Of a stretch of DNA of 64,000 nucleotides, positions 2,213 through 58,370 are shown in pieces; the stretch's first letter is position 1; every line of letters starts with the position of its first letter. Location of the stretch: NCBI GenBank assembly GCA_964486145.1, contig CAZAMT010000001.1, positions 27 through 64,026 of the forward strand, read 5' to 3'. Made by a program: the position numbers and the translations under genes. This DNA is from an uncultured Bacteroidales bacterium. Its GTDB lineage: Bacteria > Bacteroidota > Bacteroidia > Bacteroidales > JAAAOM01. The notes under the pieces are model-generated. The model did not search any database, had not been told where the DNA came from, and was given only the letters and a program-made list of their open reading frames with translations.

Positions 2213-2241
2213 CAACCCGAGCCTGTTTACATATAGTTTTG

Positions 2242-2278
2242 ATCATCGGTAGTTTATTCAATTGCCGATGATTTTTTT
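2242..2278 (+). terminator. Rho-independent terminator after the M16 gene
   Basis: Stem ATCATCGG (2242-2249) pairs with CCGATGAT (2265-2272) and is followed by a T-run to 2278. Confidence 0.7.
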
Positions 2279-2398
2279 CGATTTTTAGCATTTCATGGTC
2301 AGAGCATGTCCCTGGTGTAATCGTGATGGAATCGCAACGATCATGCAGTGATTTTTCCGTTTTTGGAGAATCAAGCCGATGAAGGGTCTGCATAACAT

Positions 2399-4729
2399 TT
2401 AATTATCCCGGTCAACAACCGTAAACGTGGTAGAGAGTGTTGCACCGTCCTCATCCATCAGGGTGAGTACATGTTCACCACTTTTTGCAAAGAATCCTGC
2501 TTCATGAATTCCTTCCGTCATCGTCAAAAAGACATCATCCAGGTGCCAATACACTTTTTTGGATGGTTCCCGATGGGCCACCTCAAACAATAACTCACTT
2601 CTGCTGCCATTTAGATTCCTGGGAATGTACACTGTCCTAACATCCGCGGGGAAAATAATTTGCATGACATCATCGGCCATTGGTTTGCATTTCGCATGCC
2701 AGGGCGGCAATGGATGATAATCCGGCACCCTTTTTTTATAGTAATATTCCATATGCGCGGGCAGTACAAACCATGATTTCGATACAATTTCTTTGTCATA
2801 GCAATTTCGGTTTACCTGTGTTGTTAAGTTTTTATTTAGATGAACCATTTTATGATACTTACAAACAGGTAGATTATCCGATTTCGGAGAGGACCATATG
2901 GTATCCTTATCCGGACAATAAACAGAGGCAGCAAAACCACTTTGACGGCAAATGATAACTTTTTTCATATCATCATAAGGTTTTAAAAACCAAGATGTTT
3001 GAGGTAATATGTTAAACAAATCAAACATCACCGGCGCAGCAGATTTGATTCCAGTAAGTCCGGGCCTTCCTTCCCCATCGGCATTTCCAACCCATACGGC
3101 CACAACAAACTCAGGGGTAGTGCCAATGGCCCAGGCATCTTTAAAGCCAAAACTGGTGCCCGTTTTCCAGGCAATTTTTCTTGATGAATTGAAATACTGC
3201 CAGCCGGTCTCCTGCACAGGTCGGTTTACTTCCCGCAAAGCTTCAAACATCAACCACACTGCACTTCTGTGCGGTAAATATTCATTTTCAAAATGATTTT
3301 CTTCCTGCTCAATATAATGCACCTTTCTTAAACTGTTTGAATTAAGGTTATTATAGCCATTCAATTTTTGGGCACACGCTGAATATACCGATGCCAGATC
3401 CCATAATGTTGCTTCAGCACCACCCAGTATCAAAGATAATCCGTAATGACCGGGAGGATAATGAAGGGTACCAATCCCGGCATTTTCAAGAAGGTGATAG
3501 AATTTTTGTTGACCGAATTGTTTTAACATGAGTACCGATGGCACATTCAACGATCGTGCAAGCGCCTGTTTTGCTTTCACAGCACCGGAATAGTCTTTGG
3601 AAAAATTTTCGGGCATATAATCTGCAAAACGAACGGGGACATCGGGAATTATTGACTCCGGTGAAATTTTCCCTTCCTCAATCAACGCTGCAAATAAGAG
3701 AGGCTTTAAAATACTGCCTGTACTCCTCGGAGCCTGAACAATGTCAACTTCGTGGTGGTGTTGTTTGCCTGCCTCATAAACATTGCCTGCATACGATTTC
3801 ACTTTTCCGGATTTTACTTCAATTATTAATGCAGCTATGTTATTTATATGATTGTTTTTTAAATTATTATAATGTCTTACCAGTACTTTTTCTGTTTGTC
3901 GTTGAAAGTAATGACTGATGGTTGTATGTATAATTTCACCTGGTTTTTCACTATTTATTTTATCAATTAAATGCTTAGCTAACAATGGCAATGCATATGT
4001 TTTTGATGGTAAAGGTTCAAGTAACGATGCCTCATATTGAAAATTATCAATCAACCCGGCCTGGAACAACTTTTTTAAAACCCGGTTTCTTTTTTTTCTC
4101 AATGCCTCTCTGTTTCTATTTGGATGAATAAGTGACGGGGCATTTGGAAGAACGGCTAACGTTGCCGTTTCTGCCCATGACAAATTGTGAGGATCCCTGT
4201 TGTAATATTTCCAGGCAGCAGCATTTAGTCCGACCACATTGCCACCATACGGTGCGAGAGAAGCATAAATCTGCATAATGTCATTTTTTGTATACTGCAA
4301 TTCCAAACGTGCAGCGAGCAACATTTCATATAACTTACGAAATACGGTTCTTTTTTTGTTCCCTTTCAGCAAACGAATAACCTGCATTGAAATCGTACTT
4401 CCGCCACTAACTATTTCACCATGTTTTGCATTCAGATATACAGCTCTCATCAATGATACCGGGTTAATACCAGGATGTTCATAAAAAAAGCGGTCTTCAA
4501 ATATGGTAATGCATGATTTAAATTTATCAGGAATACTATCCGCGATAGGAAACCGCCATTGGCCATCAGATGCAATTCGTGCACCTAATAATTGATGATC
4601 CTCAGAAAAAACTACAGTGGAATATGGCTTCTGAAAATCGGAATTTTTAATTGAACCAAAATACCAAAGGCTTAAGATAATGCTTAGACAGGCAACAACT
4701 GCTTTATTAATCAAGAAAGGCTTTCTCAA
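2399..4729 (-). CDS. pbpC: Penicillin-binding protein 1C (GT51 transglycosylase / transpeptidase)
   Basis: GT51 motifs EDRFFYEHPGINP and GGSTISMQ are present, with transpeptidase motifs SILK (SxxK) and KTGTS. Length and C-terminal domain are typical of PBP1C. The start is TTG at 4729, or TTG at 4714. Confidence 0.9.
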   Translation of the reverse strand: MRKPFLINKAVVACLSIILSLWYFGSIKNSDFQKPYSTVVFSEDHQLLGARIASDGQWRFPIADSIPDKFKSCITIFEDRFFYEHPGINPVSLMRAVYLNAKHGEIVSGGSTISMQVIRLLKGNKKRTVFRKLYEMLLAARLELQYTKNDIMQIYASLAPYGGNVVGLNAAAWKYYNRDPHNLSWAETATLAVLPNAPSLIHPNRNREALRKKRNRVLKKLFQAGLIDNFQYEASLLEPLPSKTYALPLLAKHLIDKINSEKPGEIIHTTISHYFQRQTEKVLVRHYNNLKNNHINNIAALIIEVKSGKVKSYAGNVYEAGKQHHHEVDIVQAPRSTGSILKPLLFAALIEEGKISPESIIPDVPVRFADYMPENFSKDYSGAVKAKQALARSLNVPSVLMLKQFGQQKFYHLLENAGIGTLHYPPGHYGLSLILGGAEATLWDLASVYSACAQKLNGYNNLNSNSLRKVHYIEQEENHFENEYLPHRSAVWLMFEALREVNRPVQETGWQYFNSSRKIAWKTGTSFGFKDAWAIGTTPEFVVAVWVGNADGEGRPGLTGIKSAAPVMFDLFNILPQTSWFLKPYDDMKKVIICRQSGFAASVYCPDKDTIWSSPKSDNLPVCKYHKMVHLNKNLTTQVNRNCYDKEIVSKSWFVLPAHMEYYYKKRVPDYHPLPPWHAKCKPMADDVMQIIFPADVRTVYIPRNLNGSRSELLFEVAHREPSKKVYWHLDDVFLTMTEGIHEAGFFAKSGEHVLTLMDEDGATLSTTFTVVDRDN

Positions 4730-10467: not shown

Positions 10468-13143
10468 ATGGAACATAAAAAGGTAATTAAAGGTTCAGTG
10501 ATTTTATTTATTTCCATGGTATCGCTTTTATGCATTACCATATTGTTGTCCGTTTTGTATAAAGATAAAATCATTGGCCTGGTAACTTCAAATGTCAATC
10601 AACACCTGGCAACAGAAATCAATGTTGGCAAAATTAATTTCTCCATTATTAAAACATTTCCGTTTGCATCCGTGAATTTTCATAATGCCTATGCACTTTC
10701 TACCGATAATTTAAATTCCGGACACTTTCAATCAAACACCGATACACTGTTTTACATCGACCGGATTAGCTTTAAATTTAATCCCATTCACCTCTTACAA
10801 AAAAAATATAAAGTCAATAACATCGATATTGCGAATGGCAACATACATTTATACGCGGATAAAAATGGCGAGGTAAATTACATTTTTTGGAAAAAGAATC
10901 CTGATCAACCACCAAAGCAATCATTGGATCTGCGAATGGATAACGTGAATCTGAAAGATGTGCATATTTCCTATGTGAATGCTGCCAAATCATTTAAGCT
11001 CACCGTTTTTTCCGATCGCGGAAAAATCAGAGGTGCGTATGACGGTGGAATACTCAACCTCCAGACGGATATCAATTTGCTTTTACATGACCTGCAAGTA
11101 AAAGATCTCGACTATCAAATAAATGAAAAGATAAATGTCCTCTCAACACTTGTGATTGATAAGAAAAAAATTTCTGTTGCAGATGGATGGGTACGTGCAA
11201 ATGACATGAAATTCAAGGTTGATGGAAACATTGAAACACTGGAAGAAACCCGGCTTGACCTTACCATAAATGCTGAACATATTGACATCGTTCGGTTTAT
11301 TTCTTTTCTTCCTCTATCGTTCAAAGAAAAATTGAAAAATTACAACAGCAGTGGTGATTTCGATTTTACCACCCGAATTTATGGTGTCATCAGTCATCGC
11401 CAGCAACCAACGCTGAAGGCAGATTTCGCCATTCGCAATGGACAAATCCAGAAAAAACGTTCACGTGCTGAACTAAATAACATTTACCTCAAAGGTTCTT
11501 TTAGCAATGGCAGCAAACAACAACTGAGAACTTCTGAACTAAATATACCATCATTTAAAGGTACTTTTCAAGGAAATGAGTTAACCGGGTCATTGCATTT
11601 GAAAAACCTATTAAGCCCAACGGTTCGCGGAAATATGAAAGGTTCTGTGGATATCCATGAGCTTCACCGGTTTATTGAAACAGCACTTTTGCAGGAAGCT
11701 TCCGGTCTTGCAACATTATCATTGTCCTTCACCGGAGCAATTGAGAAAACGGGAATGTTTACGAAATCCGATGCTGCCCAATGGAAATTAACCGGAGATG
11801 TTCACTTCACTGACGCAGCAATAAAACCAAAAAAAGGGCCATACGAATACAAAAACCTAAATGGAACTATATCACTGGACGGACACCACATTCATTTCCG
11901 GAAATTAAGTGTTATGGCGGATAAAAATGATCTGCTCATCAATGGTAGCTTTTCCAATGGTATACCGTACCTGCTTGGATCAAATACGAAAGCATCTATC
12001 CGGGCTGATGTTCAGTCAAATTACATGAATTTAACTTCTCTCGCCATGAAACAGGAGAATACGAAGGGCGAAAAAAGCTTAAATAGCGCAGAAAAGAATG
12101 AAAACTCTGTGGTTAAATTTCCTGAAAACCTGAGTTTTACAGGTGACTTTATGGTGAAAGATTTTATTTTTAAAGAATTTCAGGCACGCAATGCAAGGGG
12201 AAAACTAAACTACCGTCCGCGAACGATAATTCTGAATTCGGTTTATTTTGATGCACTTAATGGCAGTATTTCAGGAGGAGGTGTTATTGCACAACGGTAC
12301 AACAATGACTTTACTGTGCGTGCCCAAACCAAACTGAACAACATAAATATCAAAAAGCTTTTCTCATCATTCAATAATTTCGGACAACAGGTATTACTGG
12401 CTGATCATCTGAACGGTACGTTAAACGGATTCATTAATTTTTCTGCGAACTGGAATGTGAATTTGAAGGTTTACCGGCCGTCCATTGCCTGTGAAAGTGA
12501 CGTGAAAATACGTAATGGTGAATTGATTGATTTCACTCCGCTTCTTGGATTATCTAAATTTATTAAGGTGTCTGAGCTCAAACACATTAAATTCTCAACG
12601 CTCGAAAATAAGGTAAAAATTCAGGACGAATCGATCATCATTCCGCAAATGGACATTCAGTCTTCTGCTTTCAATATTGCCTGTTCGGGAGTTCACAACT
12701 TTGATAACAGCTACGATTATAAAGTTCAACTGTTGCTATCAGAAGTGATAAGTTCAAGACGGGATACACGTGAAAAAATCGTTACTGAATTCGGTGAAGT
12801 AAAAAAAGATAATCTGGGGCGAACAAAACTTTACCTGTCCATTTCGGGAAAAGGTGCTGATTACAATGTTGGTTACGACCTGGCCGGATCAAAAGATGCC
12901 ATGAAACAAAATATCAAAGATGAAAAACAGGAATTAAAATCAATTTTGAACGAAGAATTCGGCTGGTTTAAAAAAGACAGTCTGGAAAATATAAAACAAA
13001 ATAATAAAGAATCTCCAGCATTTATTTGGGGAGAGGAAGATCAGGACAGTACCGGAATAAATCCATTGCAAGAAAAAAAACAACAATCAAAGAAGAAAAA
13101 ATCAAAGGATTATAAAATAACCTGGGATGAAGAAGATAACTGA
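10468..13143 (+). CDS. AsmA-family (outer-membrane biogenesis) protein
   Basis: 891 aa with a single N-terminal TM anchor, long beta-rich repetitive body and a K/E-rich tail. The architecture is typical of Bacteroidota AsmA-like proteins. The assignment rests on overall pattern, not on a diagnostic motif. Confidence 0.65.
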   Translation: MEHKKVIKGSVILFISMVSLLCITILLSVLYKDKIIGLVTSNVNQHLATEINVGKINFSIIKTFPFASVNFHNAYALSTDNLNSGHFQSNTDTLFYIDRISFKFNPIHLLQKKYKVNNIDIANGNIHLYADKNGEVNYIFWKKNPDQPPKQSLDLRMDNVNLKDVHISYVNAAKSFKLTVFSDRGKIRGAYDGGILNLQTDINLLLHDLQVKDLDYQINEKINVLSTLVIDKKKISVADGWVRANDMKFKVDGNIETLEETRLDLTINAEHIDIVRFISFLPLSFKEKLKNYNSSGDFDFTTRIYGVISHRQQPTLKADFAIRNGQIQKKRSRAELNNIYLKGSFSNGSKQQLRTSELNIPSFKGTFQGNELTGSLHLKNLLSPTVRGNMKGSVDIHELHRFIETALLQEASGLATLSLSFTGAIEKTGMFTKSDAAQWKLTGDVHFTDAAIKPKKGPYEYKNLNGTISLDGHHIHFRKLSVMADKNDLLINGSFSNGIPYLLGSNTKASIRADVQSNYMNLTSLAMKQENTKGEKSLNSAEKNENSVVKFPENLSFTGDFMVKDFIFKEFQARNARGKLNYRPRTIILNSVYFDALNGSISGGGVIAQRYNNDFTVRAQTKLNNINIKKLFSSFNNFGQQVLLADHLNGTLNGFINFSANWNVNLKVYRPSIACESDVKIRNGELIDFTPLLGLSKFIKVSELKHIKFSTLENKVKIQDESIIIPQMDIQSSAFNIACSGVHNFDNSYDYKVQLLLSEVISSRRDTREKIVTEFGEVKKDNLGRTKLYLSISGKGADYNVGYDLAGSKDAMKQNIKDEKQELKSILNEEFGWFKKDSLENIKQNNKESPAFIWGEEDQDSTGINPLQEKKQQSKKKKSKDYKITWDEEDN

Positions 13144-14467: not shown

Positions 14468-14881
14468 GTGCCTTATACTTTTAGAAAGGAAGAACGTCTT
14501 TGCAGTAAAAAGCTGATTGAAGAGCTATTCAGCAAGGGTAAATCATTTTCCTATTATCCGTTTATCATTTATTACAGAAAAAACCAAATCCCGGGCAGAT
14601 ATCCTGTGCAAGTGCTCGTGACCGTTTCAAAAAAAAAGCTCCGGAAAGCTGTTGACAGAAATCTAATGAAACGCAGAATCAGGGAAGCATACCGTTTGCT
14701 AAAACCCCAATTATATTCAAACTTGCCAGTATCCGGTTCGAATTATTCCATTGCCATTATTTATGTTGCTGCCAAACGTACTCCGTCAACGGATATTCAC
14801 GACAAACTTGGTGGTGCAATTCAAAAACTGATGTTAAAAATTGTAAAAAATAACAAAATCCCTCCCCATGAAAATAATTAA
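14468..14881 (+). CDS. rnpA: Ribonuclease P protein component
   Basis: The N-terminus FRKEERLCSKKLIEELF, the basic RNR-like region KKKLRKAVDRNLMKRRIREAYR and the size of about 137 aa fit RnpA. The start is GTG. Confidence 0.85.
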   Translation: MPYTFRKEERLCSKKLIEELFSKGKSFSYYPFIIYYRKNQIPGRYPVQVLVTVSKKKLRKAVDRNLMKRRIREAYRLLKPQLYSNLPVSGSNYSIAIIYVAAKRTPSTDIHDKLGGAIQKLMLKIVKNNKIPPHENN

Positions 14882-17800
14882 ACTATTTATTTACTTGAGT
14901 ATTTTTATCTTGTTGTATTCCTGTGCAAATAAATCAAATCAGCAAATTACTCCGGATGCCGAAATATTCAAGCCATACATTGCCGCTTTTCCTTCCGAAT
15001 ATGTGTCACGTGCATCTGCTATCAGGATCATCCTTGCAAAAGAACTTTCAGAAATTCCTTCCACGGGTGAACCATTCTCTATAAAGCTGTTTGATATATC
15101 TCCTGAAATAAAAGGAAAAACATATGTTATTGATTCACGAACCATTGAATTTCAGCCAGAAAAAAAACTTGTTTCCGGGGAAATGTACCATGTGAAATTC
15201 CATTTATCAAAATTGTTTGATGTTCCTAAAGAAGCAAAGACTGCGGAATTTACCTTCAATACCGTTGAATTGAATTGCACCGCTCATTTTAGTACATACC
15301 GCCCTTATGATAAAAAAGATTTGACATGGAATAAAATCTCGGGGACATTTCATTCCTCAGATTATTTAGAACAACGGGAAGTTGAAGAAATAATCAAAGC
15401 AAAACAGGACAATCAGAATAAACCCATGACTATTTTAACCTCGGGAAACAATAATCGCAGTTTTGATTTTGAAATTGACAGCGTTCGCAGGCGTGAGGAA
15501 AAAGCAAGTGTCAACCTTTCATGGAATGGCACATCCCTTGGATACAAATTAAAAGGATCAGAAAATTATGAAATCCCGGCTCTCGGAGATTTTCATATCA
15601 ATAAAACCCATGTCATTCATCACCCTCAACAGGTACTGCAGATAATATTCTCCGATCCATTAGATGATAACCAGTTATTGGATGGATTTGTGCAACTTGG
15701 TGAAAACAATTCATTACATTATGAGATAGACTATAATATCCTAAACATTTATCCGGCGGTGCGTCAATCCGGAACACAAACCGTCACTATTTTTCCGGGC
15801 ATAAAAAATATTCTGGGCTATAAAATTTCAGAAGAACAAAAGGTTGAGGTAATCTTTGAAGCTGTTAAACCAGCCTTGAGACTAATAAATAAAGGTGTTA
15901 TTGTTCCGCAATCCGATGATATATTATTCCCTTTTGAATCTGTGAACCTCAATGCAATAGATGTGAGGATAATTCAGATTTACGAAGAAAACATTTTGCA
16001 ATTTCTTCAGGTCAACCAGTTGGATCAACAATACCAGCTCCGACGAGTAGGACGATTAATACATAAAGAAAGCATTAACTTAATAAGTGATAACCCATTG
16101 GATTACGGGAAGTGGAATTCTTTCTCACTCGACCTGTCCGAACTCATATCACCTGAACCAGGTGCTATATATCGGATTGAACTGAGTTTTAAACCTCAAT
16201 ACAGCATGTATCCCTGTGATGAGCCACTGACTGAAAATGACATACATGCCGATAAGAACTTTGAACAGGAGCTTGCGTATTGGGATAATCCCAACGCATA
16301 TAACTATGATTATGAACATTATAACTGGAATGAAAGAAACAATCCATGCAATAAAGCATATTTTGGTAAACGCAGGAATGTATCCAGAAACATATTTGCA
16401 TCCAACCTTGGAATTATTGCCAAGGCCACTTCCGGCGGTAACTATCACGTAGTAGTAAATGACATTCGAACATCAGACCCGATATCCAATGCTTTTATTG
16501 AGCTTTACAATTATCAGCAACAATTGATAGGCTCAGGATCAACCGATGGTAACGGATTTATTAACATAACTCCTGATGGCGTACCGTACAGTTTGGTTGC
16601 AAACCATAACAATAACAAAGGCTATTTGCGCCTTGCGGATGGCCATTCCCTGTCTGTGAGCAAATTTGATGTTAGCGGCTCCGATGTTCAGAAAGGAATG
16701 AAAGGATTCATATATGCAGAACGCGGGGTTTGGCGTCCAGGTGATTCGATTTATCTTAACTTTATACTTGAAGATAAATTAAACAACTTGCCAGATAATC
16801 ATCCGGTTATATTTGAATTAAAAAATCCCCAAAATCAATTAACCGATCGGCAGGTGCAGGCAAAAAGCCTGAAAGGTTTTTACAATTTTTCTACCAAAAC
16901 ACCCGATGACGGCATGACAGGTACGTGGTCTGCTAACGTAAGGATAGGAAATACTCACTTTCATAAAAGCCTTAATATTCAAACAATAAAGCCCAATCGA
17001 TTAAAAATAAACTTGAAGATTGATGAGGATTATTTATTGAAAGGCAAACCTGTATCTGCAACATTGCATTCTGAATGGCTTCATGGTGCGCCCGCGCGAA
17101 ACCTGAAAGCAGATATGACCGTTGCATTTTCCAATAAAGCATTTTCTCCGGAAGGTTATAACGAATATACCTTCTCAGATCCTTCAAGAAAATTTTACAC
17201 GGAGGAATCAACTGTTTTTGATGGTAAACTCAATGAAAATGGTAATCGCGAAGTGTCTGTCTCAACAGCCCCATCAGGAAATCCACCATCTGCTTTACTT
17301 GCAAACTTTACAACCCGGGTATTTGAAGAAGGAGGCGAATTTAGCATTGACCGGTATTCGATCCCGTATTATTCGTATCCCTCTTTCACTGGAATCGATG
17401 TTCCGGAAGGAAACAAATGGGGATGGTTGTTAACTGATACCTCGCATACAGTGAAGGTGGTTACCCTGAATCCAAACGGGATACCGGTTTCAAGAAACCG
17501 ACTGGATATAAAAATATATAAAATCAACTGGCGCTGGTGGTGGGATTCCTCCGATGATAATCTTGCCTCTTATGTCCAAGGCTCCTATCGGTCGGTTGTA
17601 TACCAGGATGAAATCAGCACAGTTAATGGCAAAGGAAGTTTTTCTTTTAAAATAAACAAACCTGAATGGGGTCGTTATTTTATTCGTGTGTACGATCCTG
17701 TTTCAGGGCATTCATCAGGAAAAGTTATATATGTTGACTGGCCTTACGGAAGTAATCGTGACAGAAATAATCCCGAAGCTGCAAGCATGTTGACATTTTC

Positions 17801-20402
17801 ATCGGACAAAGAAAAATACCAGCCTGGTGAAACAGCCATCATCACAATTCCAAAAGCTGCCAACGGAAGGGCGCTCATATCCATTGAAAATGGCAGTGAT
17901 ATTCTTGAAAAATTTTGGTATGATGTTCAATCCGGGGAACAAAAAATACCCATTGACATTACGCCGAAAATGGCACCAAACATATATGTGCACATCACAT
18001 TCATCCAACCTCATCATCAGACATCCAATGATTTACCCATTCGACTTTATGGTGTAAAACCCGTTTTTGTGGAGGATCCGGCAACTGTTTTGCACCCTGA
18101 ACTAACCACTGATAAAACTTTCCGGCCAGAAACCCCTGCCATAATTTCCGTTAATGAAAAAACAGGCAAAGAAATGGCTTACACACTTGCTATTGTTGAT
18201 GAAGGACTTCTCGATTTAACCCGATTCCAAACACCGAATCCGCACCAGGTGTTTTATGCCAGAGAAGCCCTGGGTATAAAAACATGGGATTTATATGATC
18301 ACGTACTGGGTGCTTATGGCGGTAAGATTGAGCAAATATTCAGCGTAGGAGGTGATGGTGATTTTGAATTTGAAACAGAACCAAAAAAAGCAAACCGTTT
18401 TAAACCCATGGTTAAATTTATCGGTCCTGTTTTACTAAAACCAGGTAAAACCAACACGCATACCATCCATATTCCACGGTATATCGGCTCTGTGCGGGTA
18501 ATGTTGATTGCAGGGAATGAAAACGCGTACGGAAGCACAGACAAAACGGTACCCGTAAAAAATGAATTAATGGTACTGGCTACCCTGCCAAGAGTGGTTG
18601 GCCCCGGAGAACAGGTTCAAATGCCCGCAACTGTATTTGCAATGGATGAAAATTTAAACCAGGTAACCGTGAAAGCACATACAAATGATTTATTTACTAT
18701 TGAAGGTGCCGCTACTAAAAAGCTTATGTTTTCTCAGTCGGGTGACCAACTGGTAAATTTCAAACTAAAAGTTGCAGATAAATCGGGAATTGGAAAAGCT
18801 GGTGTAAACGTTTCTTCCGGAAGTTATAATTCAACTGATGACATTGAAATAGAAGTACGAAATCCAAATCCACCGATATTTCAATTTCATGATAAAATTC
18901 TCCAACCTGGTGAAATGTGGAAGTATCAATACACGTTACCGGGAATGGAAGGAACCAATGCCGCCGTGCTTGAATTATCAACCATACCCTCGGTTGATTT
19001 TGGTAGAAGGTTAAAATACCTCCTGCAATATCCGCACGGATGCCTTGAACAAATTGTTTCCGGAGCGTTCCCTCAATTGTTTCTCCCTCTAATTATGAAT
19101 GCCGATGAAAACATGCTCGGGGTTATTGATCGCAATGTCAGGGAAGGTATTCGCAGCGTACAAAAATTTGTTCATCCGGATGGTGGTTTTGCTTACTGGC
19201 CTAACAGTAATGAATCAAATAGCTGGGTTACATCATATACCGGACATTTTTTAATTGAAGCTGAAAAGCAGGGTTATGTTTTACCGCACAACATGTTAAA
19301 AAACTGGACCAACTTTCAGAAACGCATGGCCCGAAACTGGTCTGCCGGTGGTAAAAGATATAGATACGAACGTTATTTTGAGAGTGATTTGCAGCAGGCG
19401 TATCGATTATACACCCTCGCTCTTGCGAATAAAGCAGAAACAGGTTCGATGAACCGGTTAAGGGAAAAAGATGATCTGGCTGTTCAGGCTCGTTGGCTAC
19501 TGGCCTCTTCGTATGCATTGATTAACAAAAATGATATTGCTAACGACCTTGTACGAAACCTTGGAACAGAAGTACCGGAATATCAGGGATCATCTTTCAC
19601 CTATGGATCCACCCTTCGCGACAGGGCCATTGTTTTGCTAAGCCTTCAACTGTTGGATAGACAAGATGAAGCTATAAACCTTATGAAAAATATTGCAGAA
19701 GTAATGTCTTCAGGACGCTGGCTCAGCACCCAATCAGTTGCATTCGGGCTGATGTCGGTTGCTCAAATGGCAGGTGATGCCTTTGTTTCGGATGAGATGA
19801 AATTTGAATACCAGGTAAATAATGGCAAAACCATTCGTGGACACACAGAAATGCCGGTTCATCAGATTGATTTGAACACCAGTTCACAAAGAGAAACCAT
19901 CAACGTTACCAATAATGGGGAAAGTGTCATGTTTGCACAATTATCAATGTCTGGTATACCCTTCATTGACTCAACCGGAAGCATTCAAAGCAATTTGCGA
20001 ATGAACGTAGAATATAATTCTCTTTCCAATAAATTTCTAAATGTTGATCAACTGGAACAGGGTACTGATTTTAAAGCAGTTATAACCATTGAAAATCCAA
20101 CCAACGAACGGTATCATGATATGGCACTAACCCACATTGTTCCCAGTGGATGGGAAATTGTAAACATGCGACTAAACACCGATGGATCCGTTCATTATGC
20201 CGATATACCCCAGTATCAGGATATCAGAGATGATCGGGTTTACATGTATTTTGATCTTGGTCCGGGAAAGTCAAAACAATTTGTGATTTTGCTCAATGCA
20301 TCGTACAAAGGAAAATTTTTTCTTCCTGCTGTTTCATGCGAAGCCATGTACAATAACAGGATTCGTGCAAAAACAACCGGAAAATGGGTAGAGGTGAAAT
20401 AA
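14868..20402 (+). CDS. Alpha-2-macroglobulin family lipoprotein with intact thioester
   Basis: 1844 aa. Lipobox LLYSC places Cys19. The thioester motif GCLEQ has its CLEQ codons at 19041-19052. Long MG-domain-like repeats are present. The ATG lies 14 nt inside the end of rnpA. Confidence 0.92.
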   Translation: MKIIKLFIYLSIFILLYSCANKSNQQITPDAEIFKPYIAAFPSEYVSRASAIRIILAKELSEIPSTGEPFSIKLFDISPEIKGKTYVIDSRTIEFQPEKKLVSGEMYHVKFHLSKLFDVPKEAKTAEFTFNTVELNCTAHFSTYRPYDKKDLTWNKISGTFHSSDYLEQREVEEIIKAKQDNQNKPMTILTSGNNNRSFDFEIDSVRRREEKASVNLSWNGTSLGYKLKGSENYEIPALGDFHINKTHVIHHPQQVLQIIFSDPLDDNQLLDGFVQLGENNSLHYEIDYNILNIYPAVRQSGTQTVTIFPGIKNILGYKISEEQKVEVIFEAVKPALRLINKGVIVPQSDDILFPFESVNLNAIDVRIIQIYEENILQFLQVNQLDQQYQLRRVGRLIHKESINLISDNPLDYGKWNSFSLDLSELISPEPGAIYRIELSFKPQYSMYPCDEPLTENDIHADKNFEQELAYWDNPNAYNYDYEHYNWNERNNPCNKAYFGKRRNVSRNIFASNLGIIAKATSGGNYHVVVNDIRTSDPISNAFIELYNYQQQLIGSGSTDGNGFINITPDGVPYSLVANHNNNKGYLRLADGHSLSVSKFDVSGSDVQKGMKGFIYAERGVWRPGDSIYLNFILEDKLNNLPDNHPVIFELKNPQNQLTDRQVQAKSLKGFYNFSTKTPDDGMTGTWSANVRIGNTHFHKSLNIQTIKPNRLKINLKIDEDYLLKGKPVSATLHSEWLHGAPARNLKADMTVAFSNKAFSPEGYNEYTFSDPSRKFYTEESTVFDGKLNENGNREVSVSTAPSGNPPSALLANFTTRVFEEGGEFSIDRYSIPYYSYPSFTGIDVPEGNKWGWLLTDTSHTVKVVTLNPNGIPVSRNRLDIKIYKINWRWWWDSSDDNLASYVQGSYRSVVYQDEISTVNGKGSFSFKINKPEWGRYFIRVYDPVSGHSSGKVIYVDWPYGSNRDRNNPEAASMLTFSSDKEKYQPGETAIITIPKAANGRALISIENGSDILEKFWYDVQSGEQKIPIDITPKMAPNIYVHITFIQPHHQTSNDLPIRLYGVKPVFVEDPATVLHPELTTDKTFRPETPAIISVNEKTGKEMAYTLAIVDEGLLDLTRFQTPNPHQVFYAREALGIKTWDLYDHVLGAYGGKIEQIFSVGGDGDFEFETEPKKANRFKPMVKFIGPVLLKPGKTNTHTIHIPRYIGSVRVMLIAGNENAYGSTDKTVPVKNELMVLATLPRVVGPGEQVQMPATVFAMDENLNQVTVKAHTNDLFTIEGAATKKLMFSQSGDQLVNFKLKVADKSGIGKAGVNVSSGSYNSTDDIEIEVRNPNPPIFQFHDKILQPGEMWKYQYTLPGMEGTNAAVLELSTIPSVDFGRRLKYLLQYPHGCLEQIVSGAFPQLFLPLIMNADENMLGVIDRNVREGIRSVQKFVHPDGGFAYWPNSNESNSWVTSYTGHFLIEAEKQGYVLPHNMLKNWTNFQKRMARNWSAGGKRYRYERYFESDLQQAYRLYTLALANKAETGSMNRLREKDDLAVQARWLLASSYALINKNDIANDLVRNLGTEVPEYQGSSFTYGSTLRDRAIVLLSLQLLDRQDEAINLMKNIAEVMSSGRWLSTQSVAFGLMSVAQMAGDAFVSDEMKFEYQVNNGKTIRGHTEMPVHQIDLNTSSQRETINVTNNGESVMFAQLSMSGIPFIDSTGSIQSNLRMNVEYNSLSNKFLNVDQLEQGTDFKAVITIENPTNERYHDMALTHIVPSGWEIVNMRLNTDGSVHYADIPQYQDIRDDRVYMYFDLGPGKSKQFVILLNASYKGKFFLPAVSCEAMYNNRIRAKTTGKWVEVK

Positions 20403-36660: not shown

Positions 36661-38448
36661 CTACGTATGAAAATAATTGTACACGATTTTTGCCTTTGCC
36701 TTTCCAACCATTTTTGTAAGGCTCTCCAAATTGGTTTCTTTAATATTTTTTACTGACCCGAGTTGTTTTAGCAGAATTTCTTTGGTTTTGTCGCCAACCC
36801 CTTTAATTTTTTCCAATTCGGATGAAATGGCTGTTGATGATCGTTTATTACGATGAAATGAAATTGCAAACCGGTGTGCTTCATTTCTTAATTGCTGTAT
36901 AACTTTTAGTGAGGGCGAATTTTTATCAAGATACAATGGTACGCTGTCGCCGTAAAAAAATATCTCCTCCAGTTTTTTCGCAATACCAATCAGAGCAATT
37001 TCCTTATCCAGTTCCAAATTTTTTATACTTTCCATGGCAGCATTCAGTTGTCCTTTACCCCCGTCGATAACAACAAGTTGTGGCAGAGGGCTCCCCTCTT
37101 CCCGCAATCGATTGTATCTTCTGTAAACGACTTCCTGCATGGATGCAAAATCATTTGCACCTACTACGGATTTGATATTATAATGCCGGTAATGACTTTT
37201 TGCTGGTTTACCATTCTTAAAAACAACGCATGATGCTACCGGATGAGAACCCTGAATATTTGAATTGTCAAAACATTCGATATGTACCGGCAATTTTTGC
37301 AATTTTAAATCTTCTTTGATTGCATTGAGTATTACGTTTGATTTTGATTTTACTTTTGATAATTCGACCTGTTTCTTTTTTTCATATAAATGGTACCTTG
37401 CATTTCGCTCCGACAAATCAATCAGCTTTTTCTTATCACCTATTTTTGGTATGGTTACTTTAATGTTATCAAACGGAAACTCGATATTAAATGGCACCAG
37501 TATTTCTTTTAAATTTGACCGTGTCTTGCTTCTGATATCTAAAATGGCTAATGGCAAAATTTGCTCTATATTTTCGTTGAGTTTTTTAATTATTTCAATG
37601 GTATGTGCTTGAATAATGGCTCCATTTATAATTTTTAGGAAATTTACGAATACAGTTTTTTGATCCTCCGCGGCAGCATAAACCTCCAATTCCTTAATGG
37701 CAGGATTGACAATCGTGGATTTGCTTTTATACCTTTCCAGAATTTCAATACGTTCTTTTAATCGTTGAGCTTCTTCAAATTTAAGTTCAGCAGAAAACTT
37801 TCTCATTGTTTCCTGTAAATAGTGAATTACTTCCTGTAAATTTCCTTTAATGATATTCCTAACATTTTTAATCGCTTCATTGTAATCAGGTTCTGACTGC
37901 AAATTTTCACATGGGCCTTTACAATTGCCTATGTGGTATTCTAAACAAACCTTAAATTTTTGTGCTATAATGTTTTCCTTCGTTAAATTGTAATTGCATG
38001 TTCGCAACTGGTATAATTGCTTAATGAGTGAGAGTAAGGTGCGAACCATCTTAGCAGAAGTATACGGTCCAAAATATTCTGAACCATCATTCATTATGTT
38101 ACGGGTTGAAAACACTCTCGGAAAATGTTCATTTTTAATGCAAATCCAGGGAAATGATTTATCATCTTTTAATTGAACGTTGTATTTGGGTTGGTACTTT
38201 TTAATTAAGTTGTTTTCCAGCAACAGGGCATCCGATTCAGATTCGACAACAATGTGCTTTATATCTGAAATTTTTGATACCAATAATTTCAGTTTATATG
38301 TGTCGGCTTTTGATTGATTAAAATATGAAGCAACTCGCTTTTTTAAATCTTTTGCTTTTCCAATGTAAATAACATTGCCATTGTCATCAAAATATTGATA
38401 GACTCCTGGTTTGTTTGGTAATGCGAGTATTTTTGATTTAATATCCAT
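36661..38448 (-). CDS. uvrC: Excinuclease ABC subunit C
   Basis: The GIY-YIG N-terminus (PGVYQYFDDNGNVIYIGKAKDLKKRV), a UVR domain and a C-terminal HhH are present. I place the start at MDIKSKIL (38448). The 22 upstream codons of the ORF are the translation of two parS palindromes. Confidence 0.93.
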   Translation of the reverse strand: MDIKSKILALPNKPGVYQYFDDNGNVIYIGKAKDLKKRVASYFNQSKADTYKLKLLVSKISDIKHIVVESESDALLLENNLIKKYQPKYNVQLKDDKSFPWICIKNEHFPRVFSTRNIMNDGSEYFGPYTSAKMVRTLLSLIKQLYQLRTCNYNLTKENIIAQKFKVCLEYHIGNCKGPCENLQSEPDYNEAIKNVRNIIKGNLQEVIHYLQETMRKFSAELKFEEAQRLKERIEILERYKSKSTIVNPAIKELEVYAAAEDQKTVFVNFLKIINGAIIQAHTIEIIKKLNENIEQILPLAILDIRSKTRSNLKEILVPFNIEFPFDNIKVTIPKIGDKKKLIDLSERNARYHLYEKKKQVELSKVKSKSNVILNAIKEDLKLQKLPVHIECFDNSNIQGSHPVASCVVFKNGKPAKSHYRHYNIKSVVGANDFASMQEVVYRRYNRLREEGSPLPQLVVIDGGKGQLNAAMESIKNLELDKEIALIGIAKKLEEIFFYGDSVPLYLDKNSPSLKVIQQLRNEAHRFAISFHRNKRSSTAISSELEKIKGVGDKTKEILLKQLGSVKNIKETNLESLTKMVGKAKAKIVYNYFHT

Positions 38449-38461
38449 AAAAATAAAAAAG

Positions 38462-38477
38462 TGTTCCACGTGGAACA
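38462..38477. other. parS centromere-like site (TGTTCCACGTGGAACA, perfect palindrome)
   Basis: It matches the chromosomal parS consensus TGTTNCACGTGAAACA at 15 of 16 positions, differing only at G38474. The palindrome extends to 18 bp (38461-38478, GTGTTCCACGTGGAACAC). Confidence 0.85.
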
Positions 38478-38497
38478 CTTCAATTGAAATTTTCATT

Positions 38498-38513
38498 TGT
38501 TCCACGTGGAACA
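38498..38513. other. parS centromere-like site (TGTTCCACGTGGAACA, perfect palindrome)
   Basis: The 16-mer is identical to the site at 38462-38477, 36 bp away centre to centre, and abuts the mnmG stop codon. Confidence 0.85.
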
Positions 38514-40391
38514 TTATCTTCCTAAATGCAAAAGTAATATATTTACGTCATTTGGCGATACTCCGCTAATCCGAGAAGCTTGTCCAATCGTTTTTGGCTT
38601 TATCCTGTTGAGTTTTTGTCTGGCTTCAGTTGATATTGATTTAAAATGATCATAATTGATTTCTTTGTTCAATTTAACTCCTTCAAGTCTTCCCAACTTA
38701 TCCGCAACCATTCTTTCTCTTTCAATGTATCCTTTATACTTTATCTCTATTTCAGCGGATTCCACAATTTCCTTGGACATCGAGGCTTCTAATTGCTCCA
38801 GTTTTGTTTTCAGTTTTTCGGTCGCCCCCGCTATTTCTGCCAGTTTAACTTCCGGTCGTAAAATCAGATTTATTATTTTTGTTTTCTGATTAATTTCTGT
38901 GCTGCTTTTGCTTTTCAGAAAACCATTTATCTGATCAGGGCCTGTACTTTCCTTCTCACATATATCAATTATCTCATTCACTTCTTTATATTTATCAACA
39001 ACCCTTCTTTTTCTTTCCTCACTTGCCAATCCGATTTTGTGTGATTTTTCTGTTAATCTTAAATCTGCATTATCCTGCCTTAGCAATATTCTATACTCTG
39101 CTCTCGAAGTGAACATTCGATAGGGTTCATCAACACCTTTTGTAACCAAATCGTCAATCAATACTCCAATATATGCCTCGTCTCTTTTCAATACAAACTC
39201 GTTCTTTACACCCAAAGCCTTCAATGCCGCATTCATTCCCGCTATTATTCCTTGTGCGCCTGCTTCCTCATATCCTGTAGTTCCGTTCACCTGACCAGCA
39301 AAAAATAAATTCTTTACCAATTTTGTTTCAAGTGTATGTAACAGTTGTGTAGGATCGTAATAATCATATTCGATAGCATAACCAGGACGGAATATTTTTA
39401 CATTCTCCAATCCCTTTATTTGCTTTAATGCCTTTAACTGCACCTCCCATGGCAACGAAGAACTAAACCCATTGATGTAATATTCCACATTATCGATACC
39501 CTCTGGTTCTAAAAATAACAAATGCCGCTCTTTTTCGGCAAAAGTTATAATTTTGTCTTCTATGCTTGGACAATATCTTGGTCCAATTCCCTGTATAACG
39601 CCACCAAAAAGCGGCGAATCATTGAATCCTTCTTTTAGTACCTCGTGAGTATCATCATTGGTGTATGTAATAAAACAACTTTTCCTATCCTTTATTTTTG
39701 GTTCTTCTGATAAGTATGTGAATTTTCCATCATTTTCACCTATTTGCTCCTGAAGTTCAGAAAAATCAATTGACCGTCCATCAATTCTTGCAGGTGTGCC
39801 TGTTTTCATTCGATACGTTCCAAACCCAAAATCTTTTAGCTGATCAGATAATCCAACTGACGCAGGTTCAGACACTCTACCTCCTTTGATATTAAATTTT
39901 CCAATGTGTATGAGACCATTTTGAAACGTCCCTGCAGTAAGAATTACTGTTTTTCCATAAAACTCAACTCCCATTCTTGTTTTAACACCAACAACTCTGC
40001 TATTTTTGAACAATAGGCCTTTCACTGTATCCTGCCAAAAATCTACATTTTTGATCTTTTCCAATTGTTTTCTCCATTCCGATGTAAATAAAAAGCGATC
40101 ACATTGTGCCCTCGGACTCCACATAGCAGGTCCCTTGCTTTTATTTAGCATTCGAAATTGAATGGAACTTCTATCTGTTATCAATCCCGAATATCCACCC
40201 AGCGCATCAATTTCCCGAACGATTTGACCTTTTGCAATACCACCCATCGCCGGATTGCATGACATTTGTGCAATTTTTGTCATGTCCATTGTAATAAGCA
40301 AAGTTTTTGCGCCCAGATTCCCAGCTACAGCCGCAGCTTCCGATCCGGCATGACCCGCCCCGATAACTATTACATCATACTTCCCTTCCAT
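38514..40391 (-). CDS. mnmG: tRNA uridine 5-carboxymethylaminomethyl modification enzyme MnmG (GidA)
   Basis: The FAD-binding N-terminus YDVIVIGAGHAGSEAA, a length of 625 aa and strong similarity throughout to the family pattern (GPRYCPSIEDK, QINGTTGYEEAAAQG-like) support the call. Confidence 0.97.
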   Translation of the reverse strand: MEGKYDVIVIGAGHAGSEAAAVAGNLGAKTLLITMDMTKIAQMSCNPAMGGIAKGQIVREIDALGGYSGLITDRSSIQFRMLNKSKGPAMWSPRAQCDRFLFTSEWRKQLEKIKNVDFWQDTVKGLLFKNSRVVGVKTRMGVEFYGKTVILTAGTFQNGLIHIGKFNIKGGRVSEPASVGLSDQLKDFGFGTYRMKTGTPARIDGRSIDFSELQEQIGENDGKFTYLSEEPKIKDRKSCFITYTNDDTHEVLKEGFNDSPLFGGVIQGIGPRYCPSIEDKIITFAEKERHLLFLEPEGIDNVEYYINGFSSSLPWEVQLKALKQIKGLENVKIFRPGYAIEYDYYDPTQLLHTLETKLVKNLFFAGQVNGTTGYEEAGAQGIIAGMNAALKALGVKNEFVLKRDEAYIGVLIDDLVTKGVDEPYRMFTSRAEYRILLRQDNADLRLTEKSHKIGLASEERKRRVVDKYKEVNEIIDICEKESTGPDQINGFLKSKSSTEINQKTKIINLILRPEVKLAEIAGATEKLKTKLEQLEASMSKEIVESAEIEIKYKGYIERERMVADKLGRLEGVKLNKEINYDHFKSISTEARQKLNRIKPKTIGQASRISGVSPNDVNILLLHLGR

Positions 40392-40445: not shown

Positions 40446-40862
40446 TTAGCTAAAAATTTCTTCTAAATAGTAGTCCTCTTTCTCCCTCATCACTCTTTTA
40501 TCTTCTTCCGTTAAGTCATTATAGCCGGCTAAATGAAGCACTCCATGTATGACAACGCGATATAACTCATTCTTAACGCTTACATTATGTAAAATAGAAT
40601 TTTTAACTACCGTTTCTATGCCAATATACACGCTTCCAGAAAGTGAGTTCTTTTTTTCTTGTGTAAATGTTATTACGTCGGTGGGATAATGATGTCCGAG
40701 AAATTCAATATTTACTTTAGTAATATCTTCGTCGGAAAGAAGAATAATTTCTATGATGCCTGTATTGAATCCTTCCTTTTCTAAGTTTGAGGTAACCCAG
40801 GATTCAATCTCGACTTCGTTATAGTCTATATCATGTTCTGTTTCATTGTATAAACTAACCAA
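40446..40862 (-). CDS. ybeY: rRNA maturation RNase YbeY
   Basis: The zinc motif HGVLHLAGYND (HGxLHLxGYD) is present in a 138-aa protein with a TTG start. Confidence 0.85.
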   Translation of the reverse strand: MVSLYNETEHDIDYNEVEIESWVTSNLEKEGFNTGIIEIILLSDEDITKVNIEFLGHHYPTDVITFTQEKKNSLSGSVYIGIETVVKNSILHNVSVKNELYRVVIHGVLHLAGYNDLTEEDKRVMREKEDYYLEEIFS

Positions 40863-52742: not shown

Positions 52743-52869
52743 ATCTTATATTATATTATTTTTTAAAATTAATTTAAGATCTATATATGATAATAATATC
52801 CTGTTAAAACTGTTTATATTTTCCTTTCACTAAACTTGAATTTTATCCAATTAAATATGTAAAAACAAT

Positions 52870-53122
52870 TAATTAACAAAAGTAATTTTTATGTTTCATT
52901 CAAAATCAATGAATTAATCATTTAATTAACAACATGTGAATAGCGAAATTATGTAAAAAAAATAACTCTCTGTCTGCCTGGTTTATGTTAAATATTTATT
53001 TCATTTTTTATTAGCATTTTTGGAAAAATAGAGTTTTTACAAAAACTGAAAATTTTTATATAGTACATATTGATCAACAGATCAAGTGATTTTTATAAAA
53101 AGAATTGAGTTGTAATTAACAA
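52870..53122 (+). repeat. Three direct copies of TAATTAACAA in the nadA/rpiB divergent spacer
   Basis: Exact 10-mers occur at 52870-52879, 52923-52932 and 53113-53122, all on the plus strand, within a 481-bp very AT-rich spacer. The core TTAATTAA is palindromic. Confidence 0.4.
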
Positions 53123-53223
53123 TAATTTAACATGCTATTAAATACCTTGTTTTAGGAAAAATAAATAAATGTGTTTTTAAGTAAAATTATTTGTTATACT
53201 TTTATTACTTTATTTTATAAACA

Positions 53224-54600: not shown

Positions 54601-54616
54601 TGTTTCACGTGGAACA
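54601..54616. other. parS centromere-like site (TGTTTCACGTGGAACA)
   Basis: It is the exact reverse complement of the Bacillus subtilis parS sequence TGTTCCACGTGAAACA and lies in the vanZ/hemW divergent spacer. Confidence 0.8.
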
Positions 54617-55934: not shown

Positions 55935-57974
55935 TTAGAAATTTTCGTACTGCTCTTCGGTTTTTTCTCCTTCTAAATCTAAAGCATAACCTTTGCCATT
56001 ATTTTTAGATATTTCTGTTGATTTATTAGCTACAGGTTTAGGTGTTGCTTTTTTAATGGAGTTTTTCTTAAGACTGCTTTTGAAAGCTTCTTCTCCTATT
56101 TTAAAATAAGATACATAATCTTTTAACTGATCAGCCTGTGAAGATAATTCTTCAGCGCTGGTGGCCATTTCCTCAGAAGCTGCAGCATTTTGCTGTGTTA
56201 CCTGGTTTAATTGTTGTATGGCATTGTTTACTTGCTCGGCGCCTGAGGTTTGCTCCAGGCTGGCTGCTGTGATTTCCTGAACAAGTTTTGCTGTTTTTTC
56301 AATTTCAGGAACAATTTCACCAAGTTGTTTTCCGGCTTTCTCTGATATCGAAACACCAGATTGTGATAATTCATCAATTTCATCAGCCGCAACTTTACTT
56401 CTTTCCGCAAGTTTTCTGACCTCGGCAGCTACCACAGCAAAACCTTTCCCGTGTTCACCTGCACGCGCTGCTTCCACAGCAGCATTCAATGCGAGAATAT
56501 TGGTTTGAAATGCAATGTCGTTAATGATTTTAATTTTTTCGGCAATGTTTTTCATCGAACTAACCGATATTTCGGTTGACTTATATCCTTCCCGGATACC
56601 TTCAACTGCACTAAGAGCAATTTTTTCTGTTTGTTGGGCATTCTCGGTATTTTGCTGGATATTCGATGCCATCTCTTCCATAGATGATGAAACTTCCTCT
56701 GCTGAAGATGCCTGTTCAGAAGCTCCTTGTGACATTTCCTGCGATGTAGAACTCATTTCATTACTGGCAATGGCAATCGAATCGGCTCCTGTGGTTATAC
56801 TGGTGACAATTTCACGGAGCTTTTCAACCATTGAAACAAGGGATGCAGCAAGTATTCCGATTTCATCTTTTTGATCAATATCAATGCTCGCTGTTAAGTC
56901 TCCTTTGGCAACATCCTGTGCAAACCGAACGCCTTTGTTGATTGGCTTTACAATACCAATAGTAATGACATAGGCCAGTACAATTGCAAAAAGAATTGCG
57001 ATAATACTAAATATAATAACTCCTCCCCTGGTTTTATTCGCCTCACCAAGCATTGCTTCATCTGTCATTATGTAACCTTTGGATTGTTCAATAATATCTT
57101 CAAATTTGGTACCTACCTTTTCCAGATTCGTCATTGTTTCATCATGATAAATGACCATTGCCTGGTCCATACTTTTAAGTTTTTTGTCATTCCAGTGTAT
57201 CATCTCATCAATAACATCAAGCACCTCATACGTGGTTGGTTTCAGTACCGACATATAATGGTTTTTACCAGCGCCTGTGTTTCCAGTCTTGTAATAATTT
57301 TCCATTTGCACAACTTCCTGGTGCAGTTTATTGTGAGGTTTTTCAATTTCATTGCAAATGGCGGCAAATTCAGGGAATCGTTTTTTTAATTGTTTTGTTT
57401 CCTCCGAGTTTAACCATTTTCCAAAATTACACTGCGTAGGATCTTTTTGTACATCAATAGTATTTACCTGAACTGCATTAACGGCAACATCTTTAACCCG
57501 GTGTGCAAAAATCAGGTGATCAGATTTGGCCTCGCGTAAGCTGGAACTTAAGCTCCTGTCAGCCTGTTCAAATGTGTTTTTTATTTTTTTGGCAGATTCA
57601 TGCAAATGTTTATGGGGTTCTTCCATTTCTGCAAACAGGGTGGCTAATTCCGGTGCAAGTTCTTCAGCATGTTTACGACCTTCACCAAAATACCATTTCC
57701 CGAATGCACATTGGGTGTGATCGGTTTCGACATTCAGTTCAGTTACTTCATCATTGGTAATTAATTCGTTTACATTTTGAGCCCAATGTAAATGTTGAAC
57801 ATATTTATGTTCAAGTTCTGTGCGCAATTTGTTGCCATCAATAACCTCCTCGGCGTTGCCAACAATGCCGTTAATACCGGATATCGACCAGAAAGCTACA
57901 ATGCCAAGCACCACAACGATAGCGCCAAAAGCAATAAAAAATTTTCGACCAAGTTTAATATCTTTCCATTTCAT
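55935..57974 (-). CDS. Methyl-accepting chemotaxis protein with two tandem CZB-type motifs in the predicted periplasmic domain
   Basis: TM1 spans residues about 12-32 and TM2 about 316-341, followed by a HAMP domain ([36 protein letters not shown]). The MCP signalling hairpin is [40 protein letters not shown]. Residues 61-125 and 153-218 each match the CZB motif. Confidence 0.92.
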
Positions 57975-58004: not shown

Positions 58005-58370
58005 TTATTTTGTTGTTAATGCTTCCTTTATTTTTGATTTGAATTTTTCTACATTGAATGGTTTGACAAAATATTCGCTGGCACCCATTGAAAAAGCTTT
58101 TTCTACCAAATGTACTTCTGAACTTGCAGAAACAAAATACACTGGTGCTGCTAATGAATGCATGGATGAAAGGATGTCAAACCCGTTCAAATGGGGCATG
58201 TTAATATCAATAATATACAGATCGGCTTTGAGCCGTTTAAGATTTTGAACAGCAACCAGCGAACTTACATACAGGTGAATCAGAACATTCGGAAATTCTT
58301 CTTTAATAATCGATTTCATTAGCTGTAAGCTTGTTCTTGAATCATCAATGATCATTATGCTTTTTTTCAT
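58005..58370 (-). CDS. Single-domain response regulator (CheY-like)
   Basis: 121 aa with all receiver residues intact: IIDDS, the phospho-acceptor in YIIDINMPHLNG, FVSAS and VKPF. It lies 30 nt upstream of the MCP gene on the same strand. Confidence 0.9.
   Translation of the reverse strand: MKKSIMIIDDSRTSLQLMKSIIKEEFPNVLIHLYVSSLVAVQNLKRLKADLYIIDINMPHLNGFDILSSMHSLAAPVYFVSASSEVHLVEKAFSMGASEYFVKPFNVEKFKSKIKEALTTK

Follow-up and report, generated by a model that had tools for sequence, protein, structure and literature searches.

The question raised by the gap between mnmG and uvrC in the window, i.e., the whole 64-kb stretch of DNA that was analyzed here, is what two identical palindromes lying side by side in so short a space are for, and whether they are chromosomal partition sites. 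Sequence reading and a pattern search both find TGTTCCACGTGGAACA there twice, at 38462–38477 and 38498–38513, 36 bp apart from start to start, as a sequence-only reading of this DNA had claimed for two identical 16-mers in a gap of 65 bp. The gap (38449–38513) is real at that length because of where the mnmG stop and the uvrC start are placed, and nearly half of it is taken up by the two copies. Both flanking genes are on the minus strand: mnmG (gidA; 38514–40391, 625 aa; TIGR00136, 784 bits) ends with a TAA stop at 38514–38516, and uvrC (36661–38448, 595 aa; TIGR00194, 545 bits) begins at its true ATG at 38446–38448, with the profile aligning from residue 4. In a profile search, ybeY (40446–40862, minus strand) was identified as the upstream partner in a conserved block of the order ybeY-mnmG-(parS)-uvrC.

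Passing from mnmG toward uvrC, the mnmG-proximal copy A (38498–38513, with no strand assigned) has its first base directly after the mnmG TAA stop, an abutting position that is shared with most Bacteroidota species. It is followed by an A/T-rich linker of 20 bp (38478–38497, unstranded), which is unconserved among relatives, by the uvrC-proximal copy B (38462–38477, unstranded), and by a T-rich tract on the minus strand (38449–38461) that lies between copy B and the uvrC ATG and whose T-richness is kept in relatives. One of the copies had been described as extending to an 18-bp palindrome. Such an extension does exist around copy B, but the perfect palindrome AAGTGTTCCACGTGGAACACTT measures 22 bp (38459–38480, minus strand), and it is followed on the transcribed strand by TTTTTTATTTTT.

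The two sites also leave a trace in protein annotation. The public proteins P0001–P0003 record UvrC as 617 aa beginning MFHVEQMKISIEVFHVEHFFIFMDIK, from an ORF that runs from 38514, and the 22-aa N-terminal extension of this protein is the translation through both sites. The extension is spurious, since in the relative L087 the ATGGAT start is kept but the frame of the extension runs into a TAA after 11 codons, which agrees with the earlier suggestion that the sites account for a false UvrC N terminus. The UvrC calls of relatives do not agree on a start either, with lengths of 604, 598, and 597 aa, and that of 604 aa, in L087, begins at a GTG within copy B. The 22-residue over-extension has been propagated in public protein sets and is corrected here.

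The two palindromes are very probably chromosomal parS, i.e., predicted ParB loading sites, and together with a third site in the window they would make up the parS cluster of a Bacteroidota-like bacterium. The 16-mer TGTTCCACGTGGAACA is identical to the validated parS2/parS3 of Pseudomonas aeruginosa, which belong to the oriC-proximal parS1–4 cluster of the gidAB-parAB region and are the highest-affinity ParB sites of that species (PMC4368675). One such site suffices for segregation in P. aeruginosa (PMC4368675, PMC5961200). Each copy differs by one mismatch from the asymmetric consensus TGTTNCACGTGAAACA, yet both have the fully symmetric form, and both are thus 16-bp palindromes of the kind that defines parS. 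The sites had been taken as parS in the sequence-only reading, and this identification is backed by the identity with P. aeruginosa, by purifying selection, by a low copy number, and by a position next to mnmG that is found throughout the phylum.

Purifying selection is evident from six relatives, chosen as UvrC homologues at 99, 91, 88, 83, 83, and 78% identity, whose contigs were fetched and whose spacers were aligned. A comparison of the spacer in related genomes had been put forward as a check on both copies, and both are kept in all six, with the 14-bp core GTTCCACGTGGAAC identical in the two copies and unchanged throughout, at copy A as well as at copy B. Three substitutions were observed in the relatives, all at position 1 or 16, one-sided, and none of them compensated. 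The linker is 20–24 nt long and divergent in sequence, giving center-to-center distances of 36–40 bp, and third-codon identity to the window over the first 150 uvrC codons is 77, 59, 47, 52, and 52% in the five more distant relatives. The cores have therefore remained unchanged while the linker and the synonymous sites diverged, which argues for selection on the sequence itself: the sites are kept while the neighboring non-coding DNA drifts. Judging from these alignments, 28 unchanged non-coding positions cannot be neutral. As the only substitutions are outermost and uncompensated, they fit a site where protein meets DNA better than the stem of an RNA, and what has been kept is the sequence rather than the base-pairing, as is characteristic of binding by a sequence-specific protein to DNA.

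The motif is rare in the window. Allowing up to three mismatches, only three matches were found in 64 kb, against an expectation of 0.22 from dinucleotide-preserving shuffles, and none of 100 shuffles reached three; the ParB half-site GTTCCAC, by comparison, is unenriched in the window (8 observed vs. 5.2 expected). The third match, TGTTTCACGTGGAACA (54601–54616, unstranded), has no mismatches to TGTTNCACGTGAAACA and lies 16 kb away from the pair, in a 207-bp region between a divergently oriented vanZ-like gene (minus strand) and hemW (plus strand). This is a divergent promoter region in which no transcript ends, so that the third parS is in a non-terminator context. The window thus holds a few clustered copies, three by count and all inside 16 kb, and the possibility raised beforehand that the 16-mer might be present at high copy like a REP element finds no echo within the 64 kb, where only these three sites occur.

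The position next to mnmG is not peculiar to this lineage. An MnmG-based scan with one genome per species yielded 80 Bacteroidota loci (L002–L081), including Bacteroidales, Rikenellaceae, Dysgonomonadaceae, Crocinitomicaceae, Cytophagaceae, Sphingobacteriaceae, and Chitinophaga. A parS-like site adjoins mnmG in 78 of the 80 species, if sites with no more than two mismatches to TGTTNCACGTGNAACA are counted up to 200 bp past the stop and up to 250 bp ahead of the start. With no more than one mismatch, 102 sites are found in the 44.6 kb next to mnmG vs. 28 in the other 1.47 Mb, a 120-fold enrichment, and at this threshold there is no site inside mnmG across the 80 loci. Of the 59 loci with a core downstream of mnmG, 45 have its 14 bp beginning −1 to +2 nt from the stop codon. 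The arrangement differs in Crocinitomicaceae, Cytophagaceae, and Sphingobacteriaceae, whose sites are placed not after mnmG but between it and ybeY. The gene neighborhood is widely shared as well, with ybeY upstream of mnmG in 72 of the 80 loci and uvrC downstream in 48 of them, either next to mnmG or with one gene in between.

At least two sites stand beside mnmG in 37 of the 80 loci, and in 22 loci a pair lies no more than 60 bp apart, with start-to-start distances of 16, 24, 26, 29, 31, 34–40, 48, and 53 bp. The view of such a close pair beside mnmG as a notable or unusual loading configuration is not supported, given 37 of 80 species with two or more sites there. The spacing of about 3.5 helical turns, to which meaning had also been attached, shows no fixed helical phase across a range of 16–53 bp, and a fixed 3.5-turn phasing was rejected, as spacing varies both in relatives and across the phylum. 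The pair in the window is one instance of a widespread and old arrangement, and its 36-bp spacing is without special status.

Close pairs are found beyond the Bacteroidota. Metagenome contigs were scanned for two perfect copies 4–34 nt apart, and at least 120 stretches with such pairs were found, with GC contents of 26–74%, many of them on contigs too short to classify. Among the 80 loci listed, 10 pairs abut an mnmG end and six lie inside mnmG, while four (L104, L127, L135, and L144) lie approximately 540–700 bp after mnmG, consistent with an order of mnmG-rsmG-(pair)-parAB. Another of the 80 listed has its pair 99 bp past mnmG and immediately ahead of a parB-like ORF, and in 15 the pair precedes a ParB GERRxRA motif by 1.1–1.6 kb, which places it directly in front of parA-parB (L101, L107, L112, L116, L124, L125, L130, L141, L144, L146, L147, L148, L153, L157, and L169); these are mostly of high GC content and from other phyla. 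The pairs listed suggest that close perfect pairs are a common form of bacterial centromere, typical of the gidA/parAB neighborhood.

The intragenic pairs belong to Opitutales (Verrucomicrobiota; Coraliomargarita, Puniceicoccaceae), in which the parS pair lies in frame inside mnmG, as at L095:2342–2405 within an ORF at 1558–3534, and also in L100, L138, L160, L172, and probably L111. All six metagenomic pairs of this kind are in intact mnmG ORFs of 639–718 aa, approximately 685 nt from the start. The pair encodes (L/M)FHVEQ, then about 10 residues, then (L/M)FHVE(Q/H), and the FHVE segment forms a loop insertion of approximately 25–35 aa that is absent from Bacteroidota and other MnmG proteins; L160 has three in-frame copies. 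The FHVE motif is present in all 120 of the best MnmG homologues (81–100% identity), and among these best 120 there are 111 with two FHVE copies exactly 16 residues (48 nt) apart, five with three copies, and four with one. No description of an intragenic parS in gidA/mnmG was found in the searchable literature.

A role at the level of RNA has to be weighed against parS, or beside it. A terminator scan scores copy B as terminator-like on the transcribed strand, where a 10-pair stem is followed by TTTTTTATTTTT, and the 91-nt spacer RNA has a predicted fold of −31.7 kcal/mol (z = −6.3) in which the two palindromes pair with each other. The stretch therefore has the form of an intrinsic terminator, and as in Rho-independent terminators a G+C-containing hairpin with a U-run directly follows the stop codon. 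Unlike in such terminators, it is the sequence that is conserved rather than the pairing, with no compensatory change, and most other Bacteroidota that carry this site lack the T-run, which follows the last site in only 10 of the 59 other Bacteroidota loci. In the six relatives, the AAAG...CTTT flanks of copy B and the T-run are invariant or retained in every case; as neither is needed by ParB, they point to an added constraint at the RNA level. It is possible, though doubtful, that the spacer has a dual use, as parS on the DNA and as an intrinsic terminator or attenuator on the mnmG mRNA that separates uvrC and helps to lock the sites to the stop codon, a use that would be compatible with parS. 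The stem, the strong fold, and the retained AAAG/CTTT pairs and T-run all favor it, but a T-run present in so few loci means that termination cannot explain conservation across the phylum, and if transcription were efficiently terminated 5 nt ahead of the uvrC ATG, no promoter would be visible for uvrC. An A/T-rich translation-start context, moreover, may be all that the T-richness reflects. Termination as the conserved function was rejected, given that the T-run is lineage-specific, that compensation is lacking, and that the motif is also found ahead of genes, in divergent promoter regions, and in coding sequence. It is far less probable still that the palindromes are terminator hairpins of mnmG and nothing else, with their resemblance to parS a coincidence. 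The terminator-like scan match, the predicted fold, and the position directly after the stop codon would all be accounted for, but this reading is strongly disfavored by the conservation of sequence and not structure without covariation, by a 14-bp core shared by 78 of the 80 species, which come from many orders, by the motif at 54601 outside any terminator context, by sites upstream of mnmG in some lineages and inside coding sequence in Opitutales, and by the exact match to an experimentally validated ParB site.

If the sites are bound as DNA, the protein could also be a different palindrome-specific regulator, controlling uvrC and/or mnmG, and not a partition protein. Copy B is only 13 nt upstream of the uvrC start, and ParB-family and other proteins can repress promoters near their own sites, an example being P. 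aeruginosa parS3/parS4 (PMC5521831). The motif stays constant though its neighbors differ, however, with an intervening gene before uvrC in many species and placement between ybeY and mnmG in others, and the motif has ParB as a known binding protein but no known regulator of this other kind, which is accordingly very unlikely. The least probable reading, which can hardly be credited, is that of a dispersed REP- or MITE-like repeat, of which the sites would be copies without a centromere role. They are indeed palindromic, intergenic, and duplicated, but there are three copies in 64 kb, the linker and flanks belong to no repeat unit, and sites occur at 0.019 per kb in the 1.47 Mb of Bacteroidota flanks vs. 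2.3 per kb beside mnmG, so that the distribution is not that of a dispersed palindromic repeat. Nor is the pair a plasmid-type centromere of tandem iterons (sopC/parC-like), as there are two copies and no fixed period. The sopC of the F plasmid consists of tandem repeats, each with a 16-bp inverted repeat. It resembles the present locus in that palindromes bound by the ParB family lie close together and recur every few tens of bp, but the locus differs from it in having only two copies, a variable spacing, a non-repetitive linker, and the chromosomal consensus parS.

On the preferred reading, that of parS, each 16-bp palindrome would be recognized by a ParB dimer, which on binding CTP would close as a clamp and slide onto the flanking DNA, as summarized for ParB nucleation, the CTP clamp, and sliding in other bacteria (PMC13438810, PMC5815017). 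Repeated reloading of the site would build a ParB-dense partition complex over the ybeY-mnmG-uvrC region; ParA would segregate this complex, which may also recruit condensin-type complexes, and the origin domain would thereby be organized. The two sites 36 bp apart are most likely independent, redundant, and additive loading points that raise the loading rate. A phase-dependent cooperative unit is improbable because the spacing is 36–40 bp in close relatives and 16–53 bp across the phylum, and the frequency of close pairs together with their unconstrained spacing argues for additive loading points and not for phased cooperative units. In the mnmG transcript, as a secondary and less certain effect, the hairpin and U-run may end or attenuate transcription ahead of uvrC in the lineage of the window. 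No parA or parB was found among the large ORFs of the window with NCBIfam, or at the fetched loci of relatives, and a search of six-frame translations of the window and 92 loci with a GERRxRA regular expression found no match. A cognate ParB is assumed, since neither parA nor parB is encoded in the 64-kb window.

In Bacillus subtilis, the source of TGTTNCACGTGAAACA, parS sites are mostly inside genes, unlike the tight intergenic pair seen here. The Spo0J-parS system of that species is similar in motif family and in presumed mechanism, namely ParB nucleation followed by CTP-dependent sliding. Its strongest parS sites are 5–39 kb apart (PMC5815017). In P. aeruginosa, the parS locus is linked to gidA/mnmG (PMC13438810), and the extra parS copies are redundant, as one is necessary and sufficient for segregation (PMC4368675, PMC5961200). 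The sites of P. aeruginosa lie about 10 and 20 kb from parAB, with parAB directly after gidAB, whereas those of the window are 36 bp apart, abut the mnmG stop, and are followed by uvrC and not by rsmG-parAB, with no parAB within 64 kb.

Clustering of several strong sites is shared with Caulobacter crescentus, which has five strong parS within 5 kb, including a short 'parS3+4' unit, and for which it was proposed that clustering raises the local density of ParB, as each site supports only ~2 kb of spreading (PMC5815017). The additive and redundant action considered most likely for the two sites here agrees with this argument. The Caulobacter cluster differs in being near parB and ~8 kb from ori in another phylum, and binding was shown by ChIP-seq there and is predicted here. 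Clustering of parS is also known from the same phylum-level group as the window: Hi-C of Bacteroides caecimuris found that parS clusters mark the origin domain, with several sites in one 5-kb bin at the GC-skew origin, and ParABS homologues were present in all 12 gut genomes studied (PMC10197239). That study, unlike the analysis here, reports neither a position at the mnmG stop codon nor pairs on the scale of base pairs (PMC10197239). In the gut Bacteroidales, the GC-skew origin need not coincide with dnaA (PMC10197239).

No dnaA was found among the large ORFs of the window with NCBIfam, and the window has no DnaA-box cluster, only 20 scattered single hits with at most one mismatch. Between 38 and 52 kb there is a strong negative GC skew, which levels off past 52743–53223 and does not switch at the pair, and mean GC skew across the 80 Bacteroidota loci likewise shows no switch at mnmG. 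The region 52743–53223 is a very AT-rich gap of 481 bp between the divergent genes nadA (minus strand) and rpiB (plus strand), where the negative skew ends and gene orientation changes. It sits between the parS pair and the third parS, and is a possible replication origin.

As for the organism, MnmG and UvrC have their best named relatives, at 63–65% identity, among proteins of Bacteroidales/Bacteroidota metagenome-assembled genomes, with which the window shares the ybeY-mnmG-uvrC order, and the lineage of the window is uncultured and present in several metagenomes. The window also encodes a methyl-accepting chemotaxis protein (55935–57974) and a CheY-like single-domain response regulator (58005–58370). 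Chemotaxis genes are unusual for most cultivated Bacteroidia, and their presence beside Bacteroidota-like housekeeping genes suggests a lineage that may branch deeply or be atypical. No tRNA genes or Rfam families were found in the whole 64-kb window, and two large ORFs, at 14868–20402 (1844 aa) and 10468–13143 (891 aa), matched nothing in NCBIfam at E ≤ 1e-10.

A further-reaching proposal is that a parS site or pair at the mnmG stop is the ancestral primary centromere of the Bacteroidota, held to this very nucleotide throughout the history of the phylum by a functional coupling to mnmG, and that the same coupling arose independently in Opitutales with their in-frame pair, so that the link between mnmG and parS would go beyond shared proximity to the origin. 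This seems rather unlikely, but two forms of such coupling can be envisaged: the palindrome might serve both ParB loading and the formation of the mnmG 3′ end, or transcription and translation of mnmG might shape ParB loading. The literature searched holds nothing specific on a linkage of mnmG and parS in Bacteroidota, though the tables of Livny et al. (2007) may already list the positions. What a specialist might find new is limited to the anchoring of parS at mnmG across Bacteroidota and to the pair carried in frame by Opitutales.

For the window itself, the result is a confident annotation, that of a parS cluster, the predicted chromosomal centromere, in an uncultured Bacteroidota-like lineage. 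For the Bacteroidota more generally, a parS near the mnmG stop in most sampled species offers a simple landmark for the partition site in metagenome-assembled genomes. The same landmark possibly marks the origin domain too, which would be useful because the origin of Bacteroidales does not always coincide with dnaA (PMC10197239).
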